From Escherichia phage ime, in the sequence record MN850576.1: a stretch of DNA of 64,000 bases. The stretch is one strand, 5' to 3'. The notes under the pieces are model-generated. The model was given only the letters and a program-made list of their open reading frames with translations, did no database searches and had not been told where the DNA came from. This document shows positions 30,268 through 60,533 of the stretch, one piece after another; the first letter of the stretch is position 1, and each line of letters begins with the position of its first letter. The translations under genes were made by a program, and so were the position numbers.

Positions 30268-30296
30268 ATTTTAACACTTTAGGGAACAAAATGCAA
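30268..30296 (-). promoter_or_regulatory. Sigma70-like promoter TTGCAT-N17-(TGt)TAAAAT
   Basis: Plus-strand atgcaa 30291-30296 and atttta 30268-30273 with 17-nt spacer; upstream of the start of 29194..30240. Confidence 0.5.
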
Positions 30297-30326
30297 GAAC
30301 GGAGTCCTTTCCGTTCTGACCTTTGT

Positions 30327-30641
30327 TTACCTTTTACTATGCTCTACGAGCATGTGCAAAATCTTTTGTACATCGGCTCTGATGCCTGAGACATCTGTCC
30401 TGACATCCTGCTTAAGGTCGTTAATATCGGCCTCTAGCTTGCTTAACCGGGTCTCTATAACGGAATCAAGTTTATCTTTTGTAACCATACTGTTTTTCAC
30501 TAAGATGAGGTCTTTCTCCAGCTCATCCAACCTCTTGGAAATGCCTTTCCATTTGGTGTGCCACTGGTTGAAAGCCCATACACAGATCGGGACAACGGTG
30601 CCCATGCAGATACCGTACAATGCCGCCAAATCCAACTCCAC
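30327..30641 (-). CDS. Small membrane-anchored coiled-coil protein
   Basis: 104 aa with N-terminal hydrophobic helix (ALYGICMGTVVPICVWAF) and heptad-like C-terminus. Confidence 0.45.
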   Translation of the reverse strand: MELDLAALYGICMGTVVPICVWAFNQWHTKWKGISKRLDELEKDLILVKNSMVTKDKLDSVIETRLSKLEADINDLKQDVRTDVSGIRADVQKILHMLVEHSKR

Positions 30642-30652
30642 AACACCTCCTC

Positions 30653-31237
30653 TTAGAGGGTAGGTCGCTCCGGGAAGAAAATGTCAGGGGCTTTAGATGT
30701 ATCTATTTCAAGAAGTTTTACCCTGTACATTTTCAAATCTCTGATGTTACGTTTCTGGTCATCAGTAAGATCATATTCAAGGTCAATCATGTCTTGATAG
30801 GCACCAATTCTAGCAGTAGCCCAAGCAAGTTCTGTCTCTATGACACCCTCTGCCTGTTGAACAAAGAATTCATTGTCTGTGACAAATTCATCACCAACTA
30901 AACGCAAAGCGTCGTGGTGAAGCATAATGTTTTCTGGTACCTCTTCTTTTTTGGCGATAACCACACGAAGACCTGGAGCAGGCCATAAGGCATCAGGTTC
31001 TTCTGTAGATGTCTTAAGAATTCCCTTCTCGTCAACAAGTAGGAAGATACACCCTGGATTTTCTTGTCGTAATGTTCGTGACTGCACATACCAATCACCA
31101 TCATCATTACGTAAAAAATACCCAGTGTATGCGGTGTAATCCTCGACCTCTTGAGGGGTCAGCTCCTTGGTTTCCTTGTTGGAGTGGTATTCGCCAGATC
31201 CCGGTTGGTAAAGTTTAAACTCTTGAAGTATTTTCAT
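30653..31237 (-). CDS. Hypothetical protein (possible fibre assembly factor by position)
   Basis: 194-aa ORF immediately downstream of fibre paralog B. Confidence 0.45.
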   Translation of the reverse strand: MKILQEFKLYQPGSGEYHSNKETKELTPQEVEDYTAYTGYFLRNDDGDWYVQSRTLRQENPGCIFLLVDEKGILKTSTEEPDALWPAPGLRVVIAKKEEVPENIMLHHDALRLVGDEFVTDNEFFVQQAEGVIETELAWATARIGAYQDMIDLEYDLTDDQKRNIRDLKMYRVKLLEIDTSKAPDIFFPERPTL

Positions 31238-31251
31238 GCTAGTCCTCCGAT

Positions 31252-32292
31252 CTATGCATAATTAACAGTGATCCATTGACCATTTACAAGTTTTTGTAAA
31301 GGTCCTGCCCAGTAGGTTGAACCACGCATCTCTTTTTTGTCACCGAAATGCCAGCCTGTGACAACGTATCCGTTGCGGATTGGAGATTCAGAAACGCCGT
31401 CCACAAGTCTTGCACCGATTCTGATGTCTTGCACACCTGTCTGCGGGATAGTGATCGTTACATCACCGTTACCGTTAGCCGTCACTCCATTCACGGAGCG
31501 CACCACATTTCTGTTACCGACAACACAGTGCTGGCTTCTTACAACCATACTGTCACAACTTGCACCACCATTGACATATACTGACCCAGCCGTCAACTGA
31601 CTGGCCACATTACAGTTGGTGAATGTTGCTGTATTGCTGATAGTAAGGTTATTGCACCTCATGTTATCGACAACTTCAACATTGCCTACCACTTTCAACA
31701 GCGCACGATTAGCCGTGATCGCGTTAAGGTACATCAAAGTGAACTCTGGATTAATATCCGGCTGAGTTGGCTGGAATCTCCAACGAAACGCATCTACTGT
31801 AGATGTACCACCATCATCAAACGACCCGGTATTATCACTTAACCCAAAGTCGAGGGTTGTCTTATCTGGGCCAATAGTTGTCTCTATCCAAGCCTTATCT
31901 GTCTCGGCAGCTTTAAAGTTGATACGTTGCAACCCCAAGGGGCCTGTCATTGTATCACCTGTAACTTTTACATACCTGGCGTCTGCCTCTTCCTTAGTGA
32001 TAATCCCAAGGTTTCTACGGGCAACAGGAATGTTCAAAAGATCGCTCAAGTTATTATCACGTACCAGATAACGGCCTTCTTGAGCTGGGATCTGCTCGTC
32101 AGCAATGTATTTTGCCCAAGTCCCGAGCATATTGAAAATATAGTTAAGTTCTTCACATGAGGGCTTTTGACCAAGATCCCAACCTTTTCTCCACAAATCA
32201 TCAATCGGGCGTAGCCTGTTCTGTCTGTGGGTGTTAGGCAGAACCTGATCCTCCTCTGCCCAAATCTCTAATGGAAAACTAGGTTTTGACAT
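31252..32292 (-). CDS. Tail fibre protein, paralog B
   Basis: 346 aa; paralog of 29194..30240. Confidence 0.6.
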   Translation of the reverse strand: MSKPSFPLEIWAEEDQVLPNTHRQNRLRPIDDLWRKGWDLGQKPSCEELNYIFNMLGTWAKYIADEQIPAQEGRYLVRDNNLSDLLNIPVARRNLGIITKEEADARYVKVTGDTMTGPLGLQRINFKAAETDKAWIETTIGPDKTTLDFGLSDNTGSFDDGGTSTVDAFRWRFQPTQPDINPEFTLMYLNAITANRALLKVVGNVEVVDNMRCNNLTISNTATFTNCNVASQLTAGSVYVNGGASCDSMVVRSQHCVVGNRNVVRSVNGVTANGNGDVTITIPQTGVQDIRIGARLVDGVSESPIRNGYVVTGWHFGDKKEMRGSTYWAGPLQKLVNGQWITVNYA

Positions 32293-32304
32293 TTTATCTC
32301 CTGA

Positions 32305-34377
32305 TTATGAGAAGTCTGGCGGGACAACATCTTCTACATACCCTTTCAGAGCAACCTGCCCCATATGAAGCACGGTAGAATCTCTAGCGGTAACAGTGAT
32401 GCTGTCAGACATTACTTGCGGGTATGCCCACACATACTGTTTTACCTCAGGATATCTATACTCTATAGTTGCCATGTTTCCGCAAATACATCTCCATAAA
32501 AATTCTTGGTAATTCCTGGTTGGGTCGTAACCATATACCGGAGCAAGCTCTTTACTAGGAACGAACCCTGCAAGGTATTGTATTTCAGACGGTTGCCAAC
32601 CTAACTTAACGATAGGTATGTTTACAGACTCTTTTGCCTTTTCAATACCTCCCTGCATCACCCAATCGTAGCACTCGGTGCAGAAGAAATCAAGAGCACC
32701 TGCTTCCTTTTTATATTGGTCAGCAAGGTTAAGCTTTTGCGTAAGCTCGGTTTCCATAATGGTTGGGAAAAACAGCAGAGCTGTCATCTGAGCTGATGCA
32801 GCGTGTGCCTTTATTGCCTTTGAAATAGCCGCAATACGAGCGCCAAGCTTACCACGACAAAATGCTACATACTTATCGTAAACACCGCCAGTTTTAGGAT
32901 CGTCAATAGTCCCAATATCTAATGCATACTCGCCTGTCTCATCATAAAACGCCTGTTTTGTAGGGTAATCATAAATACAAGGTCTACGAGTATCGGTATT
33001 GTACCACCACCACGGTTCACCAACCTGCATAATCACTGGCAGGTTGTTTCTCATAGCGGCTGATGCAAAATTCTTAAATACTGCAGTAAGGAAATTCATA
33101 CCCTCTTCAATGGTTGGAGACAGGAGGTAGCTACAAGGTGTATACCCTGTTTTAGCGTAGTTATCGTTCCAGTCTCTTTGGGTCCATTCCAACGGGCAGG
33201 CATCGCTGAAAAGCTCAAAACTTACAGATTGCATAACGTCGAAGTTATGTCGTTTGGCATTGTACATAAAATCATCATGCCATTTATAAGCTGCAGCGTT
33301 TAGCGCTCCTGTTCTGTTTATAGACCATTGGGTTCCTGACCATGTGTAGTCATAATAATGACTCATACCAACATAATGGTTTATGGTTCCGGTATAGCCC
33401 AGACGCTTGATATTGTTCAACACCCTTAAAGGAGACACGTTCCACATATCATCATATGCGGTGCAGATCCCAACATCGTGCTCTCTCACCTGGATATTGT
33501 TAAGTTGCATCATTTTCCAGCCTGTGTCTGGCTGAAGCAGATCTAGGCGCAACTCACACTCTACATTTTCCGTTCTCGGGTCTGTGCTATTACTTACCCA
33601 GTCTTTAGGCATAAGCGGTATTAAAATCCTTCTCACCTGCCGAGGATCAACACCCATCATGCTGTTGTTCTGGTCCATCCCGACGCAGTCCTCAAAATCA
33701 ATATGAATTTCTGCAACATTCTTATCCTCTGAGATGCTGACAGCATATTGAGCTAAAGGAACATAGATGATTGTGCCATCAACAAGGTCTACAGTCATAA
33801 TCATCTTTTCAGGAGTGGAGAAGTTGCTGGCGTTGGTTATTGACATTCTGAACCAGAGCTTGGTGTTTCTCATCTCATAATGATCATCAAACCCAATGCC
33901 GAAATGGTCATACTTGTCAACTGTTTCCCAAATGCACCCAGCCATACCTCCATATGTTCTTGACACTAAACGGTTAATACAACAGTTGTTATCTGCAACA
34001 ATACAGGTACTTTCAGTCTGCTGAGTAGTTGTAACCCAATATCTTGGGTGGAACATTCTCTCCTCAACAGTATCCCAAGATATCCTGTCGAGATTCTCAT
34101 CTGAAACTATTGTACATTTCGCCCTTTGTGTTCCAATCATTACCCCTTGGGATTTTGATGAAAACTCCATAAAGAAGCTTCTTGGTAACCTGTTGGGTAA
34201 TTTGTCAACAATTTCCACGGGGATCTCAACACTGGTTGCCCCAATTGGGATAGTTACATCGCCCTCAACATGATTATAATCTCTACCAGGAACGGCAGTA
34301 TCCTGAACTGTTCGGTAATGAAACTGTGCAGCCATTGTAGAGTAATCACGGTAAGGTTTAAAAACAGCTGTTGCCAT
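32305..34377 (-). CDS. Virion-associated protein with N-terminal Calx-beta-like motif and large C-terminal domain (possible glycanase)
   Basis: N-terminal DTAVPGRDYNHVEGDVTIPIGATSVEIPVEIVDK pattern; 690 aa. Confidence 0.45.
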   Translation of the reverse strand: MATAVFKPYRDYSTMAAQFHYRTVQDTAVPGRDYNHVEGDVTIPIGATSVEIPVEIVDKLPNRLPRSFFMEFSSKSQGVMIGTQRAKCTIVSDENLDRISWDTVEERMFHPRYWVTTTQQTESTCIVADNNCCINRLVSRTYGGMAGCIWETVDKYDHFGIGFDDHYEMRNTKLWFRMSITNASNFSTPEKMIMTVDLVDGTIIYVPLAQYAVSISEDKNVAEIHIDFEDCVGMDQNNSMMGVDPRQVRRILIPLMPKDWVSNSTDPRTENVECELRLDLLQPDTGWKMMQLNNIQVREHDVGICTAYDDMWNVSPLRVLNNIKRLGYTGTINHYVGMSHYYDYTWSGTQWSINRTGALNAAAYKWHDDFMYNAKRHNFDVMQSVSFELFSDACPLEWTQRDWNDNYAKTGYTPCSYLLSPTIEEGMNFLTAVFKNFASAAMRNNLPVIMQVGEPWWWYNTDTRRPCIYDYPTKQAFYDETGEYALDIGTIDDPKTGGVYDKYVAFCRGKLGARIAAISKAIKAHAASAQMTALLFFPTIMETELTQKLNLADQYKKEAGALDFFCTECYDWVMQGGIEKAKESVNIPIVKLGWQPSEIQYLAGFVPSKELAPVYGYDPTRNYQEFLWRCICGNMATIEYRYPEVKQYVWAYPQVMSDSITVTARDSTVLHMGQVALKGYVEDVVPPDFS

Positions 34378-35063
34378 TAACCCTCCTGTCTAGTTGCGTT
34401 TACTGTAATACTTTCACAATAAATGGTTGTGGTGTCCCAATCAGGTCTTACGTCAGGAACATATAGCAAAGTAGCCAGCCCACCAACTCCGAATTGGTTT
34501 TCTTCCCATACTGATCCGAAGCCAAGAGCTGTAGAGTCCCCTTCAAAACCAAAAGCTTGCCCTTGCGATTCTGTAAGACGCAAATGACAAGGCAATGGTA
34601 GCATATCTAAGATCTGATCGATAGACTGCAATATGTCAAAGCAAGTTTTTCTAATATTTATGTCAAACCTGAAGTTGTCTCCTTTCCACGTATCGAAATT
34701 GTCTCTTCCGAACAATTGTCGCAAGGTGGAGATGACATCTTCGCGAGTCCCGCCCCTTGATGCTGCGGCCTGCTGAATAATTAGTGTGGCACGAAAATCA
34801 GCATCTGAAAGTCCATTCCTAAGAATACCAAGTTGATTACCAACTTCGTCAAGGTATCTTCCGCTGGCATTGTTAAGCAATCTTCCTTCAGCCAAACCTA
34901 CCAGCATCTTATCAACATCCTCCAACCTTTTAAGGTATACGGTTAAGAATGTGACTAAATTAACCTTCTCAGCCAGAAAATCTCCAGGCAGGTAGTCAAG
35001 ACCTCCCTGAACAAAATCTGGCAGAGTGTGGATGTGGTTAACATCCGACTTAATCTCTGCCAT
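34377..35063 (-). CDS. Tail/baseplate-associated protein (by position)
   Basis: 228-aa ORF, stop/start coupled to neighbours. Confidence 0.45.
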   Translation of the reverse strand: MAEIKSDVNHIHTLPDFVQGGLDYLPGDFLAEKVNLVTFLTVYLKRLEDVDKMLVGLAEGRLLNNASGRYLDEVGNQLGILRNGLSDADFRATLIIQQAAASRGGTREDVISTLRQLFGRDNFDTWKGDNFRFDINIRKTCFDILQSIDQILDMLPLPCHLRLTESQGQAFGFEGDSTALGFGSVWEENQFGVGGLATLLYVPDVRPDWDTTTIYCESITVNATRQEG

Positions 35064-35074
35064 ATCTCGCCGCC

Positions 35075-36565
35075 TTAAATAGTTTGTTGGAAAGTTATAT
35101 TACTTTCGTCGAGGTCAAACACCTCAGTCATGTTCGCAACAATATCGTTTGTAGTGTAAGCTTCATCAGAAGCTCCTACGGATTTAACTTGAATTACCAG
35201 TCTATTAAATCTGCCTATTGACACAGCAGCAGATGCAGCACCTACCAATTGGATATTATACAACGTATCTGCAACATCCAGTCCGTTAACAACCTGCAAA
35301 AGAGCCTCTATAATGGCATCTTTTTCGGTTGTGGAAAGCGCAGCACCGGAGTAGGTAATTCTCATATCCAGGCGGTAGGTATTTGCCTTGGAGTAATAAA
35401 TTCTTTCAGTCTGACCGTCAGATGTAGTGACATCGTAGAAAATATTACCATAAGTCCTGTTCGTACAGGCTATAGTTTGGTAAAGTGCCTGGCAGATATC
35501 CTCTGTTGCACCACCAAACACCACCACTTGAAACTTATAAGGTGGTATACCTTTCGCATCCGTTTTATCGGTGTTGTTAGAGAACACTCTTACTTTCTCA
35601 ACACCTTTCACCTCGCTTACAGCGCTAAGGATTGCAGGACGGGTAGCCTTAGATGTTAACTGTTTTGTGCTGGAAGCTCTTAAGCGATACTCTGAGTCTT
35701 TCTCAACATCCCTGCCCTCATTGAATCTTTCTCTGTTGGTAAGCTTGATAAATCCACTGGGAGTAGGTGACATTGTTGTCACGGTTTCTGCTTCTCTTGA
35801 CAGCTCACCAGCCTCGTTAGCGATAACATCCAGTGTGATAGTTCTTTCCCCTACAATCGGGGATACTCTGAAATCTACCCTACTGTTAAGTCCAACTTGA
35901 TCAAGATTCGAATTGTACCCTATCCACAACGTTCCTGTCAACATATCGATCTGAATCAAATCGTCGTTCAACAGGGTTGTATTATCGACAATGAATTGCT
36001 TAATCTCTCCGTAAAAGCTTGGCAAATCAGAAGAGTCCAGAGATTTATCTGTTAAAACCAGGCTTTTTGTTTTGATACTTCCATCTGTCTGGTTGGTAAT
36101 TTGGAAGTTGTATTTCCCAATCCTTAGGTCTGGAGCATTTATTCTGTGAGCAATAAGATTCCCTGCTACTTGCACATCGTTGCTAAGAACAAAGTTGCCA
36201 CTGTCCAGCGTATAAGTTTTGGAATCATAAATCATATTGTACGGCACAGTTGTGTTGATTGTCAACTGGCAGGTACCTGATGATTTAGAACGGCCTCTTC
36301 GGTAAATACCCTGTCTTCCAAGAAGCTCATCTAGGTAGATACCTTCTGCCCCATACAGCGTCTGTGATGCGTATACAGATGCTGCCATAAGAATAAGTTG
36401 ATACTCTCGCTCGTTGAAGATAGTGGTCAGCTTATCTGCAACGGAGTTACTCTGTACGTTGAAGTTTTCGCCAAAAGCACGGATCAGGCTTTGCTTAGTT
36501 TCAACGATTAGGTCATTTAGGGTTGGTATAACGAAACCAGCCTCTGTCAATCCATACTTAGCCAC
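35075..36565 (-). CDS. Tail/baseplate-associated protein (by position)
   Basis: 496-aa ORF, GTG start after GGAGG. Confidence 0.45.
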   Translation of the reverse strand: MAKYGLTEAGFVIPTLNDLIVETKQSLIRAFGENFNVQSNSVADKLTTIFNEREYQLILMAASVYASQTLYGAEGIYLDELLGRQGIYRRGRSKSSGTCQLTINTTVPYNMIYDSKTYTLDSGNFVLSNDVQVAGNLIAHRINAPDLRIGKYNFQITNQTDGSIKTKSLVLTDKSLDSSDLPSFYGEIKQFIVDNTTLLNDDLIQIDMLTGTLWIGYNSNLDQVGLNSRVDFRVSPIVGERTITLDVIANEAGELSREAETVTTMSPTPSGFIKLTNRERFNEGRDVEKDSEYRLRASSTKQLTSKATRPAILSAVSEVKGVEKVRVFSNNTDKTDAKGIPPYKFQVVVFGGATEDICQALYQTIACTNRTYGNIFYDVTTSDGQTERIYYSKANTYRLDMRITYSGAALSTTEKDAIIEALLQVVNGLDVADTLYNIQLVGAASAAVSIGRFNRLVIQVKSVGASDEAYTTNDIVANMTEVFDLDESNITFQQTI

Positions 36566-36598
36566 GTCACTCCTCCGGTATGAAAATCTCTACAAGGT

Positions 36599-36627
36599 AT
36601 TTTACCAAATTTTGTAACAATAGTCAA
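36599..36627 (-). promoter_or_regulatory. Sigma70-like promoter TTGACT-N17-(TGg)TAAAAT
   Basis: Plus-strand agtcaa 36622-36627 and atttta 36599-36604 with 17-nt spacer; between the terminator and the start of 35075..36565. Confidence 0.5.
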
Positions 36628-36636
36628 TCTGAGCAT

Positions 36637-36662
36637 AAAAATAAACCCCGCCGAAGCGGGGC
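36637..36662 (-). terminator. Rho-independent terminator
   Basis: Minus-strand CCCCGC-UUCG-GCGGGG followed by UUUAUUUUU, directly after the stop of the J-like gene. Confidence 0.65.
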
Positions 36663-36670
36663 TTTAAAGG

Positions 36671-40707: not shown

Positions 40708-41261
40708 ATGATCGGGCGGCTCGCCACCTGATCCACATATTTAAAAAATCTGTCATTATCGTTTCTTGAGCTGTGGCTTTCCTCCGTGTACCGATAAGGA
40801 AAACCTCTTAACCAACTGTTGAAGATGGAAGAAATGGATATGGACAAAGCACTATTCTCACCCGTCTGAATAGCCATATCTGTTATAAGGCCGTCAAACA
40901 AGCCATTGGTTGTAACAGGCAGACCATTCTCCATAGCGGTAATGTACAACGTGGCACGACACCCAGAATACTCCGTCTTCAGCAGATCACCCACATACTT
41001 AGGATCAAACCCGTTCAATGTCGCTACCACAGATCCGAAGTTGGTGGCATCTTTCTCAGACACAGCAGTTAATGTTGCTGATCCACCTATCCCTATAAAA
41101 TGTTGCCCCTCAATTACTACAACACCAGTGCCTGAGCACACCCTGACAGTTCCTGTGGGTAGCTCCAGCTTTGCAGCAATTAAGATCTCAACACCATCAA
41201 GCTCCAGCTTTTCAAGAAATAAATTATCTAACGGCGCTCTGATCATCTTAGAAATCCTCAA
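40695..41261 (-). CDS. Minor tail protein (tail tip complex, by position)
   Basis: 188 aa; position equivalent to lambda L/K/I genes. Confidence 0.35.
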   Translation of the reverse strand: MRISKMIRAPLDNLFLEKLELDGVEILIAAKLELPTGTVRVCSGTGVVVIEGQHFIGIGGSATLTAVSEKDATNFGSVVATLNGFDPKYVGDLLKTEYSGCRATLYITAMENGLPVTTNGLFDGLITDMAIQTGENSALSISISSIFNSWLRGFPYRYTEESHSSRNDNDRFFKYVDQVASRPIIWEV

Positions 41262-41838
41262 AGAAGTTGATAACTATATTATCACCTTTTTGCATAGCAT
41301 CGACTTTTTGCTTAATTTTATAAATATCTCTGATATGAAACCTACCCTTCGGGGATTGAGTTATTATCTTCATAGTGTCCCCTGCGGCAATAGGTTTTCT
41401 AAGTCTTGGAGATATGCCTATAACAGCAGACCCAACACCATCGCTACGCACTGGAGCTGTTACCACTTTCAATTCATCATTGACAGATATTTTATCCCCA
41501 GCTCTGGCTATGTCTCTGTTCGGCTCCCACCCAACCGTCTTCAAAAAATCGTCGTTACCAGTAGGCCCAAGGGCGATTGGCTCATTAGCTGTTACTGAGT
41601 GACCGTAAGTTTTAATGAGAAAGATGTTCCCATCTTTATACACCTGATCAACAAAGCTCTTAAGCTCTAGCAACTGTGACTCGCTGATATTGGAAACCGT
41701 CAAAGTGCCTTTCCAGTTAGGTGTGGCATAGGTTACTTTTTGCGTTTTACCTGTAAACGGACTTTTAAACGTAACAATATCTGCCAGCAGCTCCAATCTA
41801 ATATCTGGAAGGTATCTAGGCCTTTCCCATAAAAACAT
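41248..41838 (-). CDS. Minor tail protein (tail tip complex, by position)
   Basis: 196 aa; follows a terminator-promoter cassette. Confidence 0.35.
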   Translation of the reverse strand: MFLWERPRYLPDIRLELLADIVTFKSPFTGKTQKVTYATPNWKGTLTVSNISESQLLELKSFVDQVYKDGNIFLIKTYGHSVTANEPIALGPTGNDDFLKTVGWEPNRDIARAGDKISVNDELKVVTAPVRSDGVGSAVIGISPRLRKPIAAGDTMKIITQSPKGRFHIRDIYKIKQKVDAMQKGDNIVINFFEDF

Positions 41839-41859
41839 TGTGCCTCCAGGTTAAACAAT

Positions 41860-41888
41860 CATGATAGTTATTTTACCAGATTTTGAGT
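41860..41888 (-). promoter_or_regulatory. Sigma70-like promoter TTGCGT-N17-(TGg)TAAAAT
   Basis: Plus-strand acgcaa 41883-41888 and atttta 41860-41865 with 17-nt spacer. Confidence 0.45.
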
Positions 41889-41900
41889 TAATACGCAATA

Positions 41901-41930
41901 CAAACAAAAAGCCCCCGCCGAAGCGAGGGC
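41901..41930 (-). terminator. Rho-independent terminator
   Basis: Minus-strand GCCCUCGC-UUCG-GCGGGGGC followed by UUUUUGUUUG. Confidence 0.6.
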
Positions 41931-49341: not shown

Positions 49342-49342
49342 C

Positions 49343-50011: not shown

Positions 50012-50020
50012 GATTTCTCC

Positions 50021-50737: not shown

Positions 50738-50749
50738 GAAAGCCCTCTA

Positions 50750-52811: not shown

Positions 52812-52823
52812 TATACGCTCCCC

Positions 52824-53708
52824 TTATTTCCCGTTAACTTTGTTGTAGTTTCCCTGCTCAGATGGGACTATGGTAGAAGGTCTTCCATATTCCTGATAAT
52901 ACCAATCCGCAGCCGATTGGGTAACACCGTTTTCATCTGTCCACATCATAGATTTGTATGGCTGCCACTCCTCTGCAGCGTTTGTGGATGCAGTGTCTGC
53001 GAATGCTCCTGTGTCCCTCTTGTTACCTACGTTACTACCATTCTTACAGTCGTTGACAGCACCTTTTTGTTGGGTCTTGCCTACTTTCTTAGGATTGCTG
53101 TATACAGTTGCATTAACAACCTTGTTCAAGTAGAATGTGCGGAACTCTGTAAGTTCTACATCAAAAACCATTGCAGCACCTTCACCAACAGACTTGTTGG
53201 CAGAAAGACTGGTTATGATGTAGTTCTCAAGAAGTCTCTCCTCGGTAACCAAAGAAACCAACTGTCGCTTATTGATAATCTCAGTCAAAGCCTCCAATGC
53301 AGCGCCTGGTCGCATAGATGCTGCAGGGTTTTTAGAGTCAGTATTCCTATCAATGTAGTTTTGCTCATAAATTATATGTGGGGATGTATTTACCCTACCA
53401 GTAAAAGAAAATACACCATCTTTAATTACAGCGTGGTCTGACATGGTAGATTTATCTTCCACTGCAAAACCAGTTTTATCAACAGAATGTTTGAAAGAAT
53501 AGTTCTCAACCTGGTCGAAGATAATGGCAAGATCGTTAGTAAAGTTTTTACCCTTCATCTCCGTATTGCGACCACCATAGTTAAGACCGCTGACAAACAT
53601 AGTATACTTTACATCGCTTTCAGTTTGCTGCTCTGCCTTTTCAGCCTTTGGAGATTTAACCTCTTGAGGCTTGTACAGGTCTTTTTCATCAACTATATTG
53701 CTTGGCAT
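52824..53708 (-). CDS. Hypothetical tail protein downstream of the tape measure
   Basis: 294-aa ORF. Confidence 0.45.
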   Translation of the reverse strand: MPSNIVDEKDLYKPQEVKSPKAEKAEQQTESDVKYTMFVSGLNYGGRNTEMKGKNFTNDLAIIFDQVENYSFKHSVDKTGFAVEDKSTMSDHAVIKDGVFSFTGRVNTSPHIIYEQNYIDRNTDSKNPAASMRPGAALEALTEIINKRQLVSLVTEERLLENYIITSLSANKSVGEGAAMVFDVELTEFRTFYLNKVVNATVYSNPKKVGKTQQKGAVNDCKNGSNVGNKRDTGAFADTASTNAAEEWQPYKSMMWTDENGVTQSAADWYYQEYGRPSTIVPSEQGNYNKVNGK

Positions 53709-53772
53709 AACCTCTCCAGGACACTCCTATACCATCTAGATATTGTATCATAAAATAGCTGTTTTTACAACA

Positions 53773-53801
53773 CCGATAAAATAAAGGGGGCCGGAGCCCC
53801 C
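53773..53801 (-). terminator. Rho-independent terminator after the tape-measure gene
   Basis: Minus-strand GGGGGCUCCGGCCCCC hairpin followed by UUUAUUUUAU. Confidence 0.6.
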
Positions 53802-53812
53802 TTCACAGTTTA

Positions 53813-56149
53813 TTACCAAAGGTCGGTAGACATGAAGTTGATATCTTTATTGTTCTCCCACTCAAGTTTTGCATCAAATATTTTGTTAAACTCACCCTCA
53901 TCTATTGAAATCGTGATTTTCCCATCACTGATCTCTAAAGGTAGCATTTCCATAGTTCTTAATTGAGAAGCAAAACCAGGGCCACCCGGCAACGGAAGAG
54001 TCCCGCCAGGTAAGGTGTCCAAAGGATTAACAAACCCGTTACCTCCCGATATGATATCTTTGCGAATCATATCGCTGATAGTATCCAGCTGCTGATTTCT
54101 TTCACTTAGTGGGTTGTAACGGTCATTAAATAATTCCCCGGCGCTTAGTATTGTACCGATAATGCCCAGCTTACCGAGCAGACCAACTTTGCCACCAGGT
54201 GTCTTGAGGCCACCCCCACCTTTTCCTGCCGGAGCTCCACCACCAGATCCTTCTGTAGTAGCGGCACCCGCTGCTCCAGCTGCACCCCTTAGAGAGTTAA
54301 GGAATTTAAAGGTTTTTACAAGCATGGATGCCATGACAAAACCTTTTGTTAGGGCGTTGACTACCAGCATGATGGCAGCAGCAAACCCTGCCCATTTAGC
54401 ATAGCTAAAGGTGTCATGAAGCTCTTCAGAATATTCCTTCGTCTTAGCTGTTATGAATCCCCATTTAATCCCCCATTCAAGGAAAAACATGCGGATCTTG
54501 ACTATAGTGTTGTTTAGTTCACCAACTGCCCAGTTAAGGCCTCTCACAAACCCGCTAACAAAATCACCAGAGGCATCCCACACAAATTGCAGAGTCTCAC
54601 CAGTGCGGATTAGTGTATAATAGAACTCTGTTAGTTCGTCAGACCAACGGGTGAACAGTTTCTGACGAGTCAGTTCGATGAAGGTTTTCAGTCTGTTTTC
54701 TGCCAGCACGTTAGACTTCTGCATTCTTTCATAACCAGCTGCAGATGCCTCGTTCATGTACTTAGCCACATACTTCATGATCTTGGCTGTTTTAACCTCA
54801 CCTTTCTTCATCATGTCCATGAACTGATCCATGGAGAGTTCAGAAAGACCAAAAGCCTCTTTGGTGGCCTTGATAAAAGGTTCGTATGCACCAGGCAATG
54901 CTTCAGCAAGTTGTTGCTTCAGTTCTTCGGACATTACTTGTCCCTTGCCAAGCATCTGTTGGATAGCCATAATACCGCGCTGGTATTTTACCTCATCGGC
55001 ACCATAAGCAGCAGCATACTGTGAGTATGCAGAAAACAGCTCATGCACTTCCTGATTTGTCATCTGGTTTTTGGCGTTTACCGACATCTGGGCGTAACCT
55101 TGAAGACCAGATTTGAGATCAAAACCAAGACGCATAGCCTCTTGCTGGACAAACGCAACCTCACTGTTGGCTTTGTTTGGATCTCCAGTAACAGCAGTAA
55201 GAGCAGCACTTGCCCCCTCCATCATGTGACCGGATCTGTTAACCGCAGCAAATCCAGAAAAAGCCGTATACGCAGCTGTTGCATTAATAACAGATCTACG
55301 TAAGTCTCTCATGGCATCGCCTAGTGTAAGCGTTTGGCTGGTGGCGCTTTTAAATCCAGACTGCAGCGCTGACAAGTGGGCGTTAAATGTTGACTTTTTC
55401 ATCTCCCCACGAGCAAACCTGGACTCTAACTCTGAGTATCCTGGCAAGCTTCCACGGAATCCGGCACCATACTTGGCAGAAAGTCTTATCGCGGAGTTGT
55501 AGAGGTGGGTTCTCCTTGCCTCACGATCCGACATAAGCCTATTATCCATGCCAGCCTTACCGTCCCTTCTTAGCTGTCTATGATAACGATTCATAGCGGC
55601 TGTCTGCGCTTTCACAAGATTAGGGTCGGAAGCCACACCACCCATATTAGGGTTACCGGGGATATATTTGAAAGATTTGGCATTAGCCAGAACTCTTGCC
55701 TTAGGTGCCTTATAACCACCGTAAGACACTGGTGCAGATTTGGCAGCCTTTTTGGCCTCTTTAGCTTGCTGCTGGTAGAACTTACGCATCCTAGCCATTT
55801 CTGGATTTTTAGCGGTAAGATTGCCTACAGCTTGTTTACGTCTCGCATTCTCCCTACGTTCTATTGCAGCTCTTACTGCAGCCTCTTTCTTGGCCTGTGC
55901 TACGCTCTCCCTGTGCAGCTTAGCATTTGCCTGAGATTGCTGTCTGGCAACCCGCTGCATTGTCTGCTGGGTTTTAACAGCTACCGCCTGCCATCTGCTC
56001 ATGGGGTTGGCTGAGTTAAAATCCTCACCTAGTTTCCTGAACTCCCTCCCAATACTGCGAATTTTCTCTACAGCTTTTTTGTAGGAGGAGTTCTCTATCT
56101 CAAAGCCAATCTTGTTGACTGTTGTGGCAACTATTTTGTTTGTAGCCAT
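53813..56149 (-). CDS. Tail tape measure protein
   Basis: 778 aa, A/K/Q/R-rich helical composition; immediately downstream of the frameshifted chaperone pair; SD GAGGAAACC before the ATG. Confidence 0.7.
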   Translation of the reverse strand: MATNKIVATTVNKIGFEIENSSYKKAVEKIRSIGREFRKLGEDFNSANPMSRWQAVAVKTQQTMQRVARQQSQANAKLHRESVAQAKKEAAVRAAIERRENARRKQAVGNLTAKNPEMARMRKFYQQQAKEAKKAAKSAPVSYGGYKAPKARVLANAKSFKYIPGNPNMGGVASDPNLVKAQTAAMNRYHRQLRRDGKAGMDNRLMSDREARRTHLYNSAIRLSAKYGAGFRGSLPGYSELESRFARGEMKKSTFNAHLSALQSGFKSATSQTLTLGDAMRDLRRSVINATAAYTAFSGFAAVNRSGHMMEGASAALTAVTGDPNKANSEVAFVQQEAMRLGFDLKSGLQGYAQMSVNAKNQMTNQEVHELFSAYSQYAAAYGADEVKYQRGIMAIQQMLGKGQVMSEELKQQLAEALPGAYEPFIKATKEAFGLSELSMDQFMDMMKKGEVKTAKIMKYVAKYMNEASAAGYERMQKSNVLAENRLKTFIELTRQKLFTRWSDELTEFYYTLIRTGETLQFVWDASGDFVSGFVRGLNWAVGELNNTIVKIRMFFLEWGIKWGFITAKTKEYSEELHDTFSYAKWAGFAAAIMLVVNALTKGFVMASMLVKTFKFLNSLRGAAGAAGAATTEGSGGGAPAGKGGGGLKTPGGKVGLLGKLGIIGTILSAGELFNDRYNPLSERNQQLDTISDMIRKDIISGGNGFVNPLDTLPGGTLPLPGGPGFASQLRTMEMLPLEISDGKITISIDEGEFNKIFDAKLEWENNKDINFMSTDLW

Positions 56150-56163
56150 GGTTTCCTCATAAT

Positions 56164-56198
56164 AAAAAGGGCCAGATCCCAGAAAAGGAATCCGGCCC
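56164..56198 (-). terminator. Strong hairpin plus U-tract between chaperone and tape-measure genes (attenuator?)
   Basis: Minus-strand GGGCCGGAUUCC-UUUUCU-GGGAUCUGGCCC (12-bp stem, 2 G-U pairs) followed by UUUUUAUUAU, ending about 15 nt before the tape-measure ATG. Confidence 0.5.
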
Positions 56199-56203
56199 TT
56201 AGA

Positions 56204-56568
56204 TTATCCTCTCCTGCGCTTAGCTTTCGCAGCAGCTGCGGCAGCCTTCTGCTCCCGCTCCATTTCCCTGTTTTGGACGGTATCTAGGAATTCTTCGATA
56301 TCAAGATACTCACAGAGCTTCAGAAAATACGCCATATCTGCAAGATTTAGCGATTCAAAATTTTCCCCTTTGAAATTCTTGAGCACCCTGCACCAAAGAA
56401 AGTCGAACCAGTTGAGTGAACTGTTCTTGGCTGCCCACTCACTGGCCCTCACAACAACCTTGCTTATTCCTGCTCTTCCGGAGTCTGATCCAGGTTGTTC
56501 ACCTGCTGAATCATACCCATCTGCTGTAACATCTCCAGAAGGCTTCCTAAACCGTCTTGTGTGAAAAA
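56204..56568 (-). CDS. Tail assembly chaperone -1 frameshift extension (GT-like)
   Basis: The -1 frame relative to 56464..56937 is open from the slippery site 56563-56569 to the stop at 56204; the listed ORF 56204..56452 is the tail of this frame. Confidence 0.6.
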
Positions 56569-56937
56569 ACAGCCGTAGTTAACCTCCAGAACCTTACCTG
56601 CCAGCTTAATCATCTCCAGCAGATGCCCTGCAAACACAACATCTGGGTTAAGCTTATCCACACCATCTACGGTAATATCTTCGAACAAGATTTTAAATAA
56701 CTCTTCAATAGAGCTATCATCAAGTTCTTGGAACAGGTAAGCCAGAGCAGTAGGAAGGACCTCTGCCATATTCTGACCACCAGAGATAATAGATCCACCG
56801 ATAGCACCTAGCGGGACAGCCACAATCTTACCGATTTTAGGCATGTTTTTCATTGCTTTCATCGGTCCCCAGTGGGTGATCACAAAGTTGTGCCCTGCTA
56901 AATCAATCTCTGTTGTAGGTCTAAAGTTTATAGCCAT
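56464..56937 (-). CDS. Tail assembly chaperone (G-like)
   Basis: 157 aa, directly upstream of the tape measure; contains slippery heptamer T-TTT-TTC in the zero frame near its 3' end. Confidence 0.65.
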   Translation of the reverse strand: MAINFRPTTEIDLAGHNFVITHWGPMKAMKNMPKIGKIVAVPLGAIGGSIISGGQNMAEVLPTALAYLFQELDDSSIEELFKILFEDITVDGVDKLNPDVVFAGHLLEMIKLAGKVLEVNYGCFFTQDGLGSLLEMLQQMGMIQQVNNLDQTPEEQE

Positions 56938-56980
56938 TTTATAGCATCCTTATTAGTCATGTTGTGCACCATATTTGTGT

Positions 56981-57009
56981 ATTTTACCATGATTATGGTG
57001 CATTGTCAA
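56981..57009 (-). promoter_or_regulatory. Sigma70-like promoter TTGACA-N17-(TGg)TAAAAT
   Basis: Plus-strand tgtcaa 57004-57009 and atttta 56981-56986 with 17-nt spacer; between the terminator and the chaperone gene. Confidence 0.55.
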
Positions 57010-57050
57010 TTTAACCTTTCAAGCAATTCAAGAACGTGTGTCAAAACCAT

Positions 57051-57083
57051 AAAAGCAAAAAGCCCCACCCGAAGGTGAGGCTT
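57051..57083 (-). terminator. Rho-independent terminator
   Basis: Minus-strand GCCUCACC-UUCG-GGUGGGGC followed by UUUUUGCUUUU, after the stop of 57100..57573. Confidence 0.6.
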
Positions 57084-57099
57084 ATGCTAAAGTGTGCCC

Positions 57100-57573
57100 T
57101 TAGATAATACCTGCAAGACCTGCGAGGCCAGTAAGAGCACCAGTGATGTTATCACGGTTGAGCCATGCATCCAGAATACCGATATCCCAGTCCAGCTGAC
57201 CTACTTCGGTTCCGTAAGTCAGGTCAGGCTGTTTCTGGATCCAACCAATTGTGGAAATACCAGGACCCTGGCTACCTTCCAGCAGAACTGGGAAGAATAC
57301 CAGACCAGTAATCGATGCCTGTTTCTGCCAGTCAGAAAGGTAAGCGTTCCATACAGAAGTGTTCTGCAAAGATACAGTCATAACACCAGATTGGTTACGA
57401 GACAGGGCCGCAGACATTTCGCCATCCACACCAACGTGAGGGTAGATGTTGTCTTCGTTTCTTGAAACAACGATCTTGGTGTCAGCAGCGAAGCCAGTGA
57501 CACGCTGCTGCATCAGGTACAGTTTGACCTTTTTAGGGTCATACGCATAAGGAGTTAAAATTTGAGTTTCCAT
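57100..57573 (-). CDS. Tail tube-like protein (by position)
   Basis: 157 aa between the 458-aa protein and the chaperones. Confidence 0.35.
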   Translation of the reverse strand: METQILTPYAYDPKKVKLYLMQQRVTGFAADTKIVVSRNEDNIYPHVGVDGEMSAALSRNQSGVMTVSLQNTSVWNAYLSDWQKQASITGLVFFPVLLEGSQGPGISTIGWIQKQPDLTYGTEVGQLDWDIGILDAWLNRDNITGALTGLAGLAGII

Positions 57574-57583
57574 CTAGTCTTCC

Positions 57584-58960
57584 TTATTCAGTCATTGCAA
57601 CAGCATTGGTGGATTTAGAACCAACTTTGTCCAGAAGAACGTTGATCCGGATACGAACGAAGTGCAGGGCGTTGTTATACACCAGTTCTACTTTCACACC
57701 TTCCAGAACACGAGCAGCCAACTGATTGGTTGGGATTTCTGCACGTTTAGGAACTGTGATGATCGGGTCGTAGAATACATTATTGTCTTCGTCGAAACCT
57801 GTCAGGATCGCACCATTCTTAATGCCAGTGTTGATTGGGTTGTTCATCAGGACAGACTTGATAACCGGAAGATCATCATCAGACATCTTCATGCTTAAAC
57901 CCATGTTGGAGCGACGATGCATGTACCCAAACATAGATTCTTCAGATCTGAACTTGATCCAGTGTGCAAAACGAATAGCGTCTGCATACTGACCTGAAGC
58001 ACACTTACCTTCCCAGAAAGCGCCAACACCGTTAATCATTCTGTAGAAGTTAACGTGGTTTTCCCAAATAGCCATACGCTGAGTTAAAGTCAGAGACGGT
58101 GCAATCACACCTGGCATCTGTTTTAAGTGCAAGCTGTCGCCGTAAGACGGATCGTTGGATGCCATAGCACCTATGATACCACCCTCCGGGAAGTCCTTAT
58201 CTGCACGAGGATCGTACATGCCGACACTGTCATATTGTGCAGCTTTCAGTTTGGTGGCGATGTTATTATCTTTACCAGTCACATCTTCTGCAGTAGAGTA
58301 GACATGCAGCTTGTAGTTAGCCTGAGCCCACTTAGCACATGCTTCAATGTCGGTGTGGTCTTCATGGCACAGGAAGTACCAATTGTCACGCTCAGCATTG
58401 ATCTTATCAACTACTGTAGAAGGTTTTTCAGCATTGGCGATATTTTTGATTGTATAGTTACCAGTATGGTAACCAACAGTACAGTCACCAGTGATGGTGA
58501 TAACACCATCAGCAGCCTCTACAGTGATATCGTCCAAGTTATCATCTGCTTCGATTTTAGTCTTCATTGACTCTGCAATCTGAGTTGCAGCTGTTCCACC
58601 AGAGATAGGGACTATCAAAGAGGTATTGTAGCTACCTTTTGCAATAGTCATTACGACATCGGTATCAGCTGCGGCAGCAATACCTTTAAAATCTACAGTG
58701 GTCTTTTCTTTGGCCTGTCTGCCGATCATAACGTATTGTGGAGGGAATACACCACCAAAAGCTTTTGCTGCAAACTCATACGCTGCAGAGCCTTGTGCGA
58801 AACCATCTTCCACCATCTGATCCAGCTCTGCATATACGCGAGCTCGCTCAGTAAAGTTGTTGTGGATAGCGATGAACAGGGGAGTTTCGAAACCTACAGT
58901 GTCAATAGGCTGGGTTCCGAGGTTAACTGTAACATCTACCACTTTATCTAAATATGGCAT
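57584..58960 (-). CDS. Tail sheath-like or major tail protein
   Basis: 458 aa, first tail gene after the neck genes; cannot tell sheath from major tail protein without structure or homology search. Confidence 0.4.
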   Translation of the reverse strand: MPYLDKVVDVTVNLGTQPIDTVGFETPLFIAIHNNFTERARVYAELDQMVEDGFAQGSAAYEFAAKAFGGVFPPQYVMIGRQAKEKTTVDFKGIAAAADTDVVMTIAKGSYNTSLIVPISGGTAATQIAESMKTKIEADDNLDDITVEAADGVITITGDCTVGYHTGNYTIKNIANAEKPSTVVDKINAERDNWYFLCHEDHTDIEACAKWAQANYKLHVYSTAEDVTGKDNNIATKLKAAQYDSVGMYDPRADKDFPEGGIIGAMASNDPSYGDSLHLKQMPGVIAPSLTLTQRMAIWENHVNFYRMINGVGAFWEGKCASGQYADAIRFAHWIKFRSEESMFGYMHRRSNMGLSMKMSDDDLPVIKSVLMNNPINTGIKNGAILTGFDEDNNVFYDPIITVPKRAEIPTNQLAARVLEGVKVELVYNNALHFVRIRINVLLDKVGSKSTNAVAMTE

Positions 58961-59032
58961 TTGTTTCCTCTTAATATCTGTGCACGGATATCAAACACGC
59001 AGTGTAATCATTACACTACACAATTATAACGA

Positions 59033-59584
59033 TTACTGACCACTGTCTGTAACCGCTTTACCAGAATTGGGTGAAGGGAAGTGTGTGGTTATTTCAGCCT
59101 TAATTCCCTGAAGATCCTCAAAAGCCCCAATGTCTGTTTCAACAAACCTTACGTTAAATGTCAGCATCACAGTGGCTCTATTTTCATACGTCTGCTTATT
59201 CAACGGCACTCTTTGAGGTGAGATTGTTGAATTGTTAGAGTAGGCAAAGCACGATCCCAGAGGGAAATACTTGTCATAAAACATTGGAAGGTTTATTGCT
59301 TGCAATACTCTGCTAAGTGCAGCATGTGCCCTGCCACGATAAGCTGTTAACAGATAGGTAACAGTGTAACTGTGTGTTACGTAAGCATTACCCTCCGCAT
59401 CTTGAAACTCATTATCTTCCCAAGTGGTGGGATTGATCGCCAAGGTTTGTAAAAGTACAAACTCACCTTCCGGCTTCGGTATGGTAGAGCTTTCTGCCAG
59501 AACTACAGTTCTTCCTGTGGCAACCTTGACAAGCTTAGCAATGGTTGTTTCAAGATCAGAAAAAACTTTTTCGAAAGCTTCCAT
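59033..59584 (-). CDS. Neck/tail completion protein (by position)
   Basis: 183-aa ORF. Confidence 0.4.
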   Translation of the reverse strand: MEAFEKVFSDLETTIAKLVKVATGRTVVLAESSTIPKPEGEFVLLQTLAINPTTWEDNEFQDAEGNAYVTHSYTVTYLLTAYRGRAHAALSRVLQAINLPMFYDKYFPLGSCFAYSNNSTISPQRVPLNKQTYENRATVMLTFNVRFVETDIGAFEDLQGIKAEITTHFPSPNSGKAVTDSGQ

Positions 59585-60009
59585 CAGTCTTCTCCTTCAG
59601 GCTCTTCTACCACAAAAAATCTATATCTTCCACCACCAGACGTGACATATGCATCGCATTTTAAAACGGTAAACCATTTCAAGTCACCACGGATGTCAGG
59701 CAGCTGAATTTGATCAGCCATTGCATATGTTCCTTCATCTGGACTATACAACTTGGTTGAGGAGTAAACTGTAAAAGCCTCGTACTGTCTGTCACCTTCT
59801 GGATTTATTTGAGAGGAGTAATCTTTAGCTGCCCTTCCTGTCAACGGCTGCACAACACACTCTAAGACATCAAACTCTTCATACTCAAGTTCTAACCCCT
59901 CGTTAGCAAAAGGACCACCAACTGTTTTGTTATACACTCTGTGGCGACCTTTGAATGTTTTACGGGGTATTAGCCTGTTCTTTCCTATCAGCTTATAACC
60001 TGCTGCCAC
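59584..60009 (-). CDS. Head-tail connector/neck protein (by position)
   Basis: 141-aa ORF, stop/start coupled. Confidence 0.4.
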   Translation of the reverse strand: MAAGYKLIGKNRLIPRKTFKGRHRVYNKTVGGPFANEGLELEYEEFDVLECVVQPLTGRAAKDYSSQINPEGDRQYEAFTVYSSTKLYSPDEGTYAMADQIQLPDIRGDLKWFTVLKCDAYVTSGGGRYRFFVVEEPEGED

Positions 60010-60018
60010 TCAACCCCC

Positions 60019-60498
60019 TTATTTTTGCTGTCCAATTTTAAAGGTTGCAGATTCCAGCAGCACATCGTAATGCCGCATAGCCTCGTTGAAGCCCTTCTCT
60101 TGTGCCCACTGCTCACTAACAGTAGGGTTACTAAACTGACCAGCCTCAATAACAAACTGGATAGCTTTGGCCCCTGTGTCCCCCATCTGCTTAAGAATAG
60201 CCTCTGCACTTGATCCTCTAGCCATAGCTCTCAACAATTTTTCTGTCAAGGTCTGTAGTTGAGTGCTGTGAAATGCAAAAGCTGTCTCCATGAAATTGCG
60301 AACAGGCAGCCCGTTCCAACCGAAGTTGTGAATGGCTGCCAATGTTGCCATATTTAAGCCTGACGGGTGAGGTTCGTCATAAAAGCCGTAGGTTATTGTT
60401 TTACTTTCAAGTCTCACAAGTTCTTTGTAGAAGCGATCTAAACGCTTTAGGTTGAACCTTGTTTGACATTTAACCTTTAGCATTATTATATCCCTCAC
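60019..60498 (-). CDS. Head-tail adaptor protein (by position)
   Basis: 159-aa ORF with its own promoter-like element upstream. Confidence 0.4.
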   Translation of the reverse strand: MRDIIMLKVKCQTRFNLKRLDRFYKELVRLESKTITYGFYDEPHPSGLNMATLAAIHNFGWNGLPVRNFMETAFAFHSTQLQTLTEKLLRAMARGSSAEAILKQMGDTGAKAIQFVIEAGQFSNPTVSEQWAQEKGFNEAMRHYDVLLESATFKIGQQK

Positions 60499-60504
60499 TA
60501 ATGT

Positions 60505-60533
60505 ATTTTACCACAAAGATACATCAAAAGCAA
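60505..60533 (-). promoter_or_regulatory. Sigma70-like promoter TTGCTT-N17-(TGg)TAAAAT
   Basis: Plus-strand aagcaa 60528-60533 and atttta 60505-60510 with 17-nt spacer. Confidence 0.45.

Follow-up and report, generated by a model that had tools for sequence, protein, structure and literature searches.

The closest described precedent for the sites reported here comes from coliphage rV5, for which Kropinski et al. (2013, Virol J 10:76, Table S4C; PMC3606486) listed putative late promoters sharing the motif TggTAaAAtA, with accompanying terminators t041, t049 and t052, and considered the motif either as sigma-70 promoters or as a phage-specific late class read by a reprogrammed polymerase, for which the T4 late promoter TATAAATA served as the model. 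The papers on rV5 and CB7 (PMC3606486, PMC7344957) state that phages of this group carry no gene for an RNA polymerase, and the early promoters of the group have been described as sigma-70-like, both in rV5 (Table S4A) and in the Certrevirus phages CB7 and CR3, where they follow the form AAAA-N3/4-TGTTGAC-N17/19-TATAAT (PMC7344957). The searched literature yielded no transcription start sites, timing or in vitro results for the Vequintavirinae and no transcriptomic data for the genus Vequintavirus or the subfamily; its sole RNA-seq paper mentioning the group concerned a T5-like phage. Two further systems invite comparison: the galP1-type extended -10 (TGn) promoters of E. coli, in which the TG is contacted by sigma region 3.0 and the -35 element is dispensable, and the late promoters of T4, which are read by gp55 together with gp33 and the gp45 clamp.

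The window analysed here, a 64,000-nt stretch of Escherichia phage ime (MN850576.1), is that of a Vequintavirus, an rV5-like coliphage with 98-99.8% identity to sequenced relatives (98.0% to rV5, NC_011041, across 8.5 kb); scans of the window for Rfam families and for tRNAs returned no match. An earlier note on this DNA had claimed five minus-strand sites of the form TTGnnn-N17-TGnTAAAAT, and all five are present, the spacer being 17 nt in each and a TG lying one base 5' of the -10 hexamer. Four were placed correctly, and the fifth, given as 41860-41888, is a 10-nt slip for 41870-41898; the description of their -35 elements as near-consensus was too generous, three of the sites sharing only TTG with TTGACA. 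Under their rV5 names, the sites are P056 (60505-60533, TTGCTT-N17-(TGG)TAAAAT-A), 5' of the Neck1/tail-completion gene (60019-60483); P051 (56981-57009, TTGACA-N17-(TGG)TAAAAT-A, an 11/12 match plus TG), 5' of the tail assembly chaperone gene (56464-56937); P040 (41870-41898, TTGCGT-N17-(TGG)TAAAAT-A), 5' of a distal tail/tail fibre gene (41248-41838); P036 (36599-36627, TTGACT-N17-(TGG)TAAAAT-A), 5' of a baseplate wedge gene (35075-36565); and P030 (30268-30296, TTGCAT-N17-(TGT)TAAAAT-A), 5' of the short tail fibre gene (29194-30237). A sixth member of the class, absent from the earlier list, occupies 53742-53770 on the same strand (TTGTAA-N17-(TGA)TACAAT-A), 5' of the tail-tube-initiator/baseplate genes (52824-53708). 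The sites stand 20-45 nt 5' of the start codons.

Comparison with Table S4C placed the five sites at the same junctions as their rV5 namesakes, three being letter-identical and P030 and P040 differing by one spacer base each. P036 and P051 also appear in the sigma-70 list of the rV5 paper (PMC3606486), and the RefSeq annotation of NC_011041 carries the latter as 'Sigma70-type promoter; P51'. The five sites were therefore already known, having been published in 2013 as putative late promoters of rV5, and the present result is a rediscovery that adds little as discovery. The rV5 paper aligned the -10 region alone, and the -35 TTG at 17 nt, the conservation across genera and the fusion with terminators went unremarked; the present analysis contributes the geometry of the -35, the conservation between genera, and corrections to one site and to one coordinate. 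The corrected site is P048, for which the published MEME placement was rejected in favour of TGATACAAT, 20 nt downstream (-10 at 53742-53747), the published motif instance falling on the -35 as read here. P055 (59603-59612, TGGTAGAAGA) was rejected as a member, being inside coding sequence and lacking the final -10 T. An operator role for the 8-bp inverted repeat that surrounds the P051 -10 was also set aside, the left arm of the repeat being variable among close relatives.

In the window, TTG-N20-TAAAAT occurs five times against 0.95 expected, with at least five matches in 0/100 shuffles. TAAAAT by itself (57 versus 49.7 in shuffles) and TGnTAAAAT by itself (7 versus 3.9) are not enriched, so that the signal lies in the combined pattern. 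Only two of the six sites were caught when the late block was scanned for the generic sigma-70 consensus, a scan that showed no enrichment relative to shuffled sequence (34 versus 33.5; 36 versus 32.3) and was set aside as uninformative. The earlier note held that its proposal would fail if the motif were equally frequent within coding sequence; all five sites were found in intergenic gaps, which make up about 2% of the late block, and are co-directional with the genes. The full-genome motif search that it had called for was run on the complete genome of a close relative and returned eight TTG-N20-TAAAAT sites, all of them non-coding, co-directional and carrying the TG, with seven of the eight in the late-direction unit. 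No 7-mer is more enriched than TAAAATA in the late-strand intergenic gaps of seven Vequintavirinae, where it ranks ahead of terminator words, with 18 of its 41 occurrences falling within 3.7% of the sequence.

Of 373 aligned intergenic columns, 41 vary within the genus, compared with 0 of 33 core positions (-35 TTG, TG and -10). Across genera the sites keep their places at the neck and baseplate-wedge junctions and after the tape-measure gene, amid intergenic sequence that has otherwise diverged. An orthologue of P056 is present in all six other Vequintavirinae examined, and orthologues of P036 occur in KB57, Hena1, CR3 and LTH01. Counterparts of the 53742 site (TGnTAAAAT/TAAACT) lie 3' of the tape-measure gene in KB57, Hena1, CR3, LNA4, TH18 and LTH01, with a further counterpart in the phi92-like phage alia. 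P051 is confined to the genus Vequintavirus among the relatives compared. The motif is thus directly observed, as are its geometry, its conservation and its restriction to late intergenic gaps, and, as read from the sequence, the late sites are genuine, non-random promoter-like signals of the structural-gene block.

The geometry of these promoter-like sites is that of a canonical sigma-70 extended -10 element. All six window sites have TG one base 5' of the -10 hexamer (TGG in four, TGT and TGA in one each), a TAnnnT hexamer retaining T-12, A-11 and T-7 (TAAAAT in five, TACAAT in one) and TTG at a 17-nt spacer. Among 30 intergenic TGnTAnnAT sites from seven phages, many of which are orthologues and hence non-independent, TTG was found at spacer 17 in 17 and at spacers 13-16, 18 and 19 in none; the -10 is TAAAAT in 24 and TATAAT in none, and the next base is A in 23. 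The rest of the late -35 is degenerate, often TTGCnn, and the Certrevirus-like clade has TTTTAA, TTTTTT or ATGACT at this position, indicating that the -35 contact is not universal. The TG, the TAnnnT, the weak or partial -35 and the 17-nt spacer are shared with the extended -10 class of E. coli, whereas the host promoters are far less uniform than the phage sites, with their TAAAAT followed by A, and the use of the phage sites by sigma-70 is putative. With T4 late promoters they share a short A/T-rich -10-region element common to structural-gene promoters, the analogy drawn in the rV5 paper (PMC3606486). However, TGnTAAAATA differs from TATAAATA, which is absent from the late intergenic gaps of the window examined, and where a T4-type promoter is without a -35 element, TTG is conserved here at 17 nt.

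The emphasis is reversed in the early promoters of the Vequintavirinae, which resemble the late class in occurring in the same phages, in their presumed polymerase and in a 16-18 nt spacing. Located in early and replication gene units, they have a near-invariant TTGACA and a variable -10, with 20 different -10 hexamers among 37 sites and a TG in only 12 of the 37, whereas the late class belongs to the structural block and has a strong -10 and a weak -35. The TATAGT site that the earlier note had grouped with the late motif, at 14360-14388 on the minus strand, exists and corresponds to rV5 P010 (PMC3606486), but it does not belong to the class: reading TTGACT-N17-TATAGT without the TG, it belongs to a divergent pair of early-type TTGACA promoters whose other member, P011, lies on the plus strand (14402-14430, TTGACA-N17-TGA-TACGAT).

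Seven hairpins of -16.5 to -26.1 kcal/mol have the features of terminators, namely a G+C-rich stem, a U-tract, placement on the gene strand and a position after a stop codon. Five of the six late promoters lie directly behind a hairpin, four behind strong terminators and one behind a weaker one, all on the minus strand. The rV5 terminator t052 (57060-57083, -21.4 kcal/mol, z -6.5) is 3' of the tail tube gene and 50 nt 5' of the P051 -35; t049 (53783-53803, -20.6 kcal/mol) is 3' of the tape-measure gene and 12 nt 5' of the -35 of the 53742 site; t041 (41911-41930, -16.9 kcal/mol) is 12 nt 5' of the P040 -35, and its T-tail extends into the promoter; and a terminator at 36643-36664 (-16.5 kcal/mol), annotated likewise in phage Murica, is 3' of the 1199-aa lateral tail fibre gene and 15 nt 5' of the P036 -35. 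The weaker hairpin at 30296-30317 (8 bp with an interrupted U-tail, -12.8 kcal/mol, z -3.1) has as its final base the first T of the P030 -35. The claim that most sites sit just downstream of a terminator hairpin thus held, with strong hairpins at 36599, 41870 and 56981 and the weaker one at 30268; none was seen upstream of the 60505 and 14360 sites.

Four minus-strand terminators have no promoter downstream: t028 (27132-27153, -14.9 kcal/mol), 5' of the last long tail fibre gene; the strong t050 (56167-56200, -26.1 kcal/mol), between the chaperone and tape-measure genes; a terminator-like hairpin at 61184-61210, 5' of the tail capping gene, a junction at which other genera carry ATGACA-N17-TGATAAGAT; and t060 (62085-62107), 3' of the major capsid gene. 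Genes downstream of these must depend on read-through, and the block is consequently not cleanly divided into independent units. The suggestion that it is cut into separately initiated units is therefore supported by the repeated terminator-then-promoter junctions, but not in the sense of cleanly independent transcripts.

The late sites are probably sigma-70-type extended -10 promoters used by the host RNA polymerase, restarting transcription after terminators. Via sigma regions 2.4, 3.0 and 4.2 the holoenzyme would bind the core TGnTAAAAT-A together with the partial -35, a TTG at a distance of exactly 17 nt, and transcription would start approximately 7 nt downstream of the -10, so that a short leader of some 15-40 nt would precede the opening gene in each sub-module of the structural block, namely the neck, the tail chaperones, the baseplate and the sets of tail fibres. 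At five of the six sites the terminator T-tail extends into the -35 or upstream region, so that each junction may halt part of the incoming transcription and restart it at a locally set level, with expression behind a promoterless terminator proceeding via read-through. Initiation at the motif, the form of the polymerase and the timing are here inferred, and the label 'host-like' given to these promoters earlier was an overstatement, use by the host being presumed from their sigma-70 geometry. The sequence of P051 comes close to a perfect sigma-70 promoter, from which unaided host polymerase should fire from the start of infection, a poor fit to 'late', and the uniformity of the -10 beyond the needs of sigma-70 hints at an extra specificity determinant.

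Such a determinant is central to a tentative and rather unlikely alternative, that these are dedicated late promoters at which the host polymerase is reprogrammed by a phage protein (a sigma appropriator, an activator or a small divergent sigma) reading TGnTAAAATA. The near-confinement of the motif to the structural block would fit such a factor, as would its greater uniformity compared with the early class, with TATAAT never used and A conserved at -6, and a -35 that is degenerate and missing in one clade; the phage also encodes many small early proteins without assigned function. The opposition between a perfect TTGACA with a variable -10 in the early class and, in the late class, a strong extended -10 combined with a weak -35 fits a disabling of -35 recognition late in infection, and extended -10 promoters resist T4 AsiA. 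However, a TTG fixed so strictly at 17 nt speaks for continued contact of sigma region 4 with the DNA, and the retention of the motif in phages of Escherichia, Klebsiella, Erwinia and Cronobacter is also compatible with a conserved host sigma-70. Searches at the sequence level, with fold-level relatives outside their reach, found no gp55 homologue: a tblastn search of a close relative's complete genome with T4 gp55 gave a best E-value of 0.59, and a collection-wide search placed only T4-like phages among the best 40 of 2026 records. No gp33 or gp45 is reported in the rV5 paper (PMC3606486). Candidate factors fared no better, gp11 being rejected as an Srd-like anti-sigma (an HNH-endonuclease PHROG fits far better than Srd, Srd/decoy matches are weak and there is no Pfam match) and bas48_0220 of phage CarlMeissner, the only protein annotated as a 'putative transcriptional regulator', being rejected as a late activator (weak HTH; best PHROG 'replication initiation protein', in line with its best matches to replication-initiator families). 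The T4 MotA box, TGCTTtA, is centred at -30, 12 +/- 1 nt from the -10; TTGCTT, found only at P056 and its orthologues, was rejected as such a box on spacing, since at the -35 with a 17-nt spacer it is about 2-3 nt too far upstream. It is accordingly put forward as speculation, and judged unlikely, that TGnTAAAAT-A and the TTGACA class form an early-to-late switch of the Vequintavirinae in which a phage protein unrelated in sequence to T4 gp55 would retarget or appropriate the host polymerase.

An action of the element as RNA, as an A/U-rich RNase E-type processing, stability or translation-enhancing site in a read-through transcript, would suit its position, with stable hairpins just 5' of it and start codons 20-45 nt 3', and the promoterless terminators imply that read-through occurs. 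This is nevertheless highly improbable, as it leaves unexplained both the exact 17-nt TTG, with no neighbouring offsets tolerated, and the TG one base 5' of TAnnnT, and P056 has no nearby hairpin and the window no Rfam match. Chance resemblance in A/T-rich intergenic DNA, with which the flat generic scan and the unenriched TAAAAT agree, is effectively refuted by the combined-pattern enrichment, the purely intergenic co-directional placement, the position conservation across genera and the invariant core.

Phages of the rV5 type find wide use in E. coli O157 typing and biocontrol and in phage-therapy collections. Their putative two-class promoter grammar, TTGACA-driven early and extended -10 TAAAAT-driven late, with the late promoters fused to terminators, provides a testable map of late transcription units along with a collection of compact insulator modules, each a terminator joined to a promoter. 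The motif is near-confined to structural-gene junctions in at least five genera.

Of the six promoter-like sites proposed in an earlier note, the five with a TAAAAT -10 hexamer were all present on the minus strand, at 30268-30296, 36599-36627, 41870-41898, 56981-57009 and 60505-60533 (P030, P036, P040, P051 and P056 in rV5 nomenclature), the third lying 10 nt away from its original placement at 41860-41888. In all five, TTG stands exactly 20 nt before the hexamer, giving a 17-nt spacer after the -35 hexamer, and TG lies one base ahead of the -10; all are located in the structural block's few intergenic gaps, in the same direction as the genes. TTG-N20-TAAAAT occurred five times against 0.95 expected, a count reached in 0 of 100 shuffles. 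There was no significant enrichment in the window of TAAAAT alone or TGnTAAAAT alone, and zero excess of sites in a generic sigma-70 scan, so the signal resides in the specific combination and its placement. The original observation is correct and clearly non-random. Listing of every late-block gap revealed an additional minus-strand site of the same build that had been missed, TTGTAA-N17-TGA-TACAAT at 53742-53770, which immediately follows the tape-measure terminator. The remaining proposed site, TATAGT at 14360-14388, is present but belongs to another class, without TG; it is back-to-back with a plus-strand TTGACA-N17-TGATACGAT at 14402-14430, and the pair is placed where two non-structural gene units diverge.

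By sequence identity, the window is assigned to an rV5-like coliphage of the genus Vequintavirus, subfamily Vequintavirinae, with a 12-kb piece sharing 99.2% identity with phage rV5_ev146 and 98-99% with more than 100 other records, and an 8.5-kb piece sharing 99.8% with phage Alma and 98.0% with rV5. Mapping onto the annotated relative CarlMeissner placed the structural module on the minus strand, running from 64000 to 21478, in the order scaffold, decoration, major capsid, neck, tail sheath/tube, chaperones, tape measure and baseplate, followed by an extended tail-fibre series, and PHROG searches of the first gene behind each site agreed with this assignment. A genome-wide motif search, named as a check in the earlier note, was conducted on the complete CarlMeissner genome, assembled from four fetched pieces (98.7% identity to the window over 12 kb). 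All eight TTG-N20-TAAAAT sites in the 137.6 kb were non-coding, co-directional with genes and TG-extended, and seven were in the late-direction unit, six of those within the structural module, including one that precedes the prohead protease gene, immediately beyond the window's edge. The only TTG-N17-TGnTAAAAT-A site not in the late-direction unit (CarlMeissner 75241-75269, outside the window) sits downstream of the DNA polymerase gene, where it occupies a gap between small genes. In CarlMeissner non-coding DNA outside the structural module there were 37 TTGACn-N16-18-TAnnnT sites, most of them in the early and replication units. These early sites and the late class differ in emphasis: in the early class TTGACA is almost invariant, the -10 takes 20 different forms and 12 of the 37 sites carry TG, whereas in the late class (30 sites across seven phages) TTG is followed by anything, the hexamer is TAAAAT in 24 of 30 sites and TATAAT in none, A follows it in 23, and TG is present in all 30 by selection of sites.

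Folding confirmed intrinsic terminators on the minus strand at 36643-36664, 41911-41930, 53783-53803 and 57060-57083 (-16.5 to -21.4 kcal/mol) and a weaker hairpin at 30296-30317 (-12.8 kcal/mol); all five precede a -35 at a distance of 0-50 nt. In four of the five cases the T-tail runs directly into the -35 region (0-15 nt), the gap at P051 being 50 nt. No terminator was found upstream of P056, and minus-strand terminators at 27132-27153, 56167-56200, 61184-61210 and 62085-62107 have no promoter behind them, so that the genes behind these need read-through. The claimed pairing of promoters with terminators is thus frequent but not a rule. Division of the block into separately initiated units by host-like promoters is a reasonable interpretation but only partly supported: insulation between the units is incomplete, one of the proposed sites falls in another class, and the host-like character of the promoters is putative.

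Comparison with the structural blocks of LNA4, KB57, Hena1, CR3, TH18 and LTH01, other Vequintavirinae with tail-sheath identities of 51-60%, identified TAAAATA as the commonest 7-mer in late-strand intergenic gaps (18 of 41 occurrences within 3.7% of the sequence), followed by words of GC-rich UUCG-loop terminators. Of 30 intergenic TGnTAnnAT elements, 17 had TTG at a spacer of exactly 17 and none had it at spacers of 13-16, 18 or 19, these neighbouring spacers serving as a control for T-rich terminator tails. Three junctions kept their position across genera, namely those preceding the neck and baseplate wedge genes and the one following the tape-measure gene; P051 was restricted to Vequintavirus, and neither P040 nor P030 had an identified counterpart in the other genera examined. 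Members of the Certrevirus-like clade have TTTTAA, TTTTTT or ATGACT at the -35 position, indicating that the core shared by all is the extended -10 and that the TTG at -35 is a common accessory. Within the genus, alignment of three junctions in 8-11 genomes showed variation at 41 of 373 columns and at 0 of 33 core positions (chance probability ~0.02).

For rV5 itself, these putative late promoters have been published before. Table S4C of Kropinski et al. 2013 (PMC3606486) lists exactly the same five TAAAAT sites, and the authors likened the motif to the T4 late promoter while noting the absence of gp33, gp45 and gp55. Their sigma-70 list also includes P036 and P051, their P010 is the TATAGT site, and t041, t049 and t052 (41911-41930, 53783-53803 and 57060-57083) are among their terminators; P51 is annotated in the RefSeq record as a sigma-70-type promoter. 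Two of the eight published instances were not upheld: P048 is aligned on what reads here as the -35 hexamer, and P055 falls in coding sequence and lacks a proper -10. The later literature searched contained no mention of the motif and no transcript mapping for the rV5-like phage group. The present analysis adds the -35 geometry, cross-genus conservation, the fusion to terminators and one further site, and corrects one site and one coordinate.

The sigma-70 holoenzyme recognises TTG at -35, a 17-nt spacer, TG at -15/-14 and TAnnnT, and the geometry of the late sites matches this pattern. Given this match, the lack of an RNA polymerase in the phage group as reported in the rV5 and CB7 papers (PMC3606486, PMC7344957) and the absence of any gp55-like sigma detectable by tblastn, the most economical reading is that host RNA polymerase would use the late sites directly, with each terminator-promoter junction resetting the level of transcription ahead of the structural sub-module that follows. 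However, direct host use leaves unexplained both the timing and the uniformity of TAAAAT-A, the consensus TATAAT never being used. A phage factor favouring extended -10 promoters late in infection, such as one disabling -35 recognition as T4 AsiA does at -35-dependent promoters, is a possible but less likely alternative, and no candidate emerged. The late element is unlikely to act at the RNA level, in processing or translation, since such a role would not call for a TTG at a fixed 17-nt distance.

The rV5 paper (PMC3606486) and the BASEL annotation label gene 11 (14396/14450-15439, plus strand) an Srd-like anti-sigma factor. This role is doubtful, as its best match, PHROG 3118 'HNH endonuclease' (8e-113), is much better than the weak ones to 'decoy of sigma70' (3e-15) and Srd (3e-10); there were zero Pfam matches. 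The sole annotated regulator was set aside as a late factor, since it resembles a replication initiator.

Several further features were observed at or near these junctions. The post-tape-measure junction (window 53742-53803) recurs in another subfamily, in the phi92-like coliphage alia of the Stephanstirmvirinae, where a terminator and then TTGACA-N18-TGATAAAAT directly follow the tape-measure gene (fetched sequence L031, 11802-11916). Two extended -10 elements stand in tandem, as TGCTAAGAT-aa(t/c)g-TGGTAAAAT, in the P056 orthologues of Seunavirus, Mydovirus and Henunavirus (L003 ~6241-6262; L004 43035-43014; L005 5585-5606), with a third TGGTAAAAT further upstream in Hena1. Outside Vequintavirus, the tail tube-chaperone gap (L010-L019, ~520-570) contains a conserved nested hairpin, e.g. 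cgtgtgccacatggacgtggcctttcacacacg, which may be an attenuator; Vequintavirus has a terminator and P051 in its place. The P051 -10 is flanked by an 8-bp inverted repeat, TGCACCAT...ATGGTGCA (57002-56995 and 56972-56965, minus strand), and a third ATGGT copy overlaps its TG extension; an operator role is doubtful, given the variation of the left arm among close relatives (L007, L008, L025). Elsewhere, three tandem 87-aa ORFs at 16949-17738 (plus strand) fall into phrog_10698 (two) and phrog_12861 (one), neither with an annotated function. The last lateral tail-fibre gene (21478-27112, minus strand) is split near 24000 into two overlapping ORFs at 21478-24036 and 23945-27112 by a frameshift: 2 nt are missing compared with the undivided 5637-nt gene of CarlMeissner, which reflects either a pseudogene or a sequencing error. 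At 60481-60490 (minus strand) there is a 3-nt insertion (ATAATAATG versus ATAATG in seven related genomes) at or just before the Neck1 start codon.
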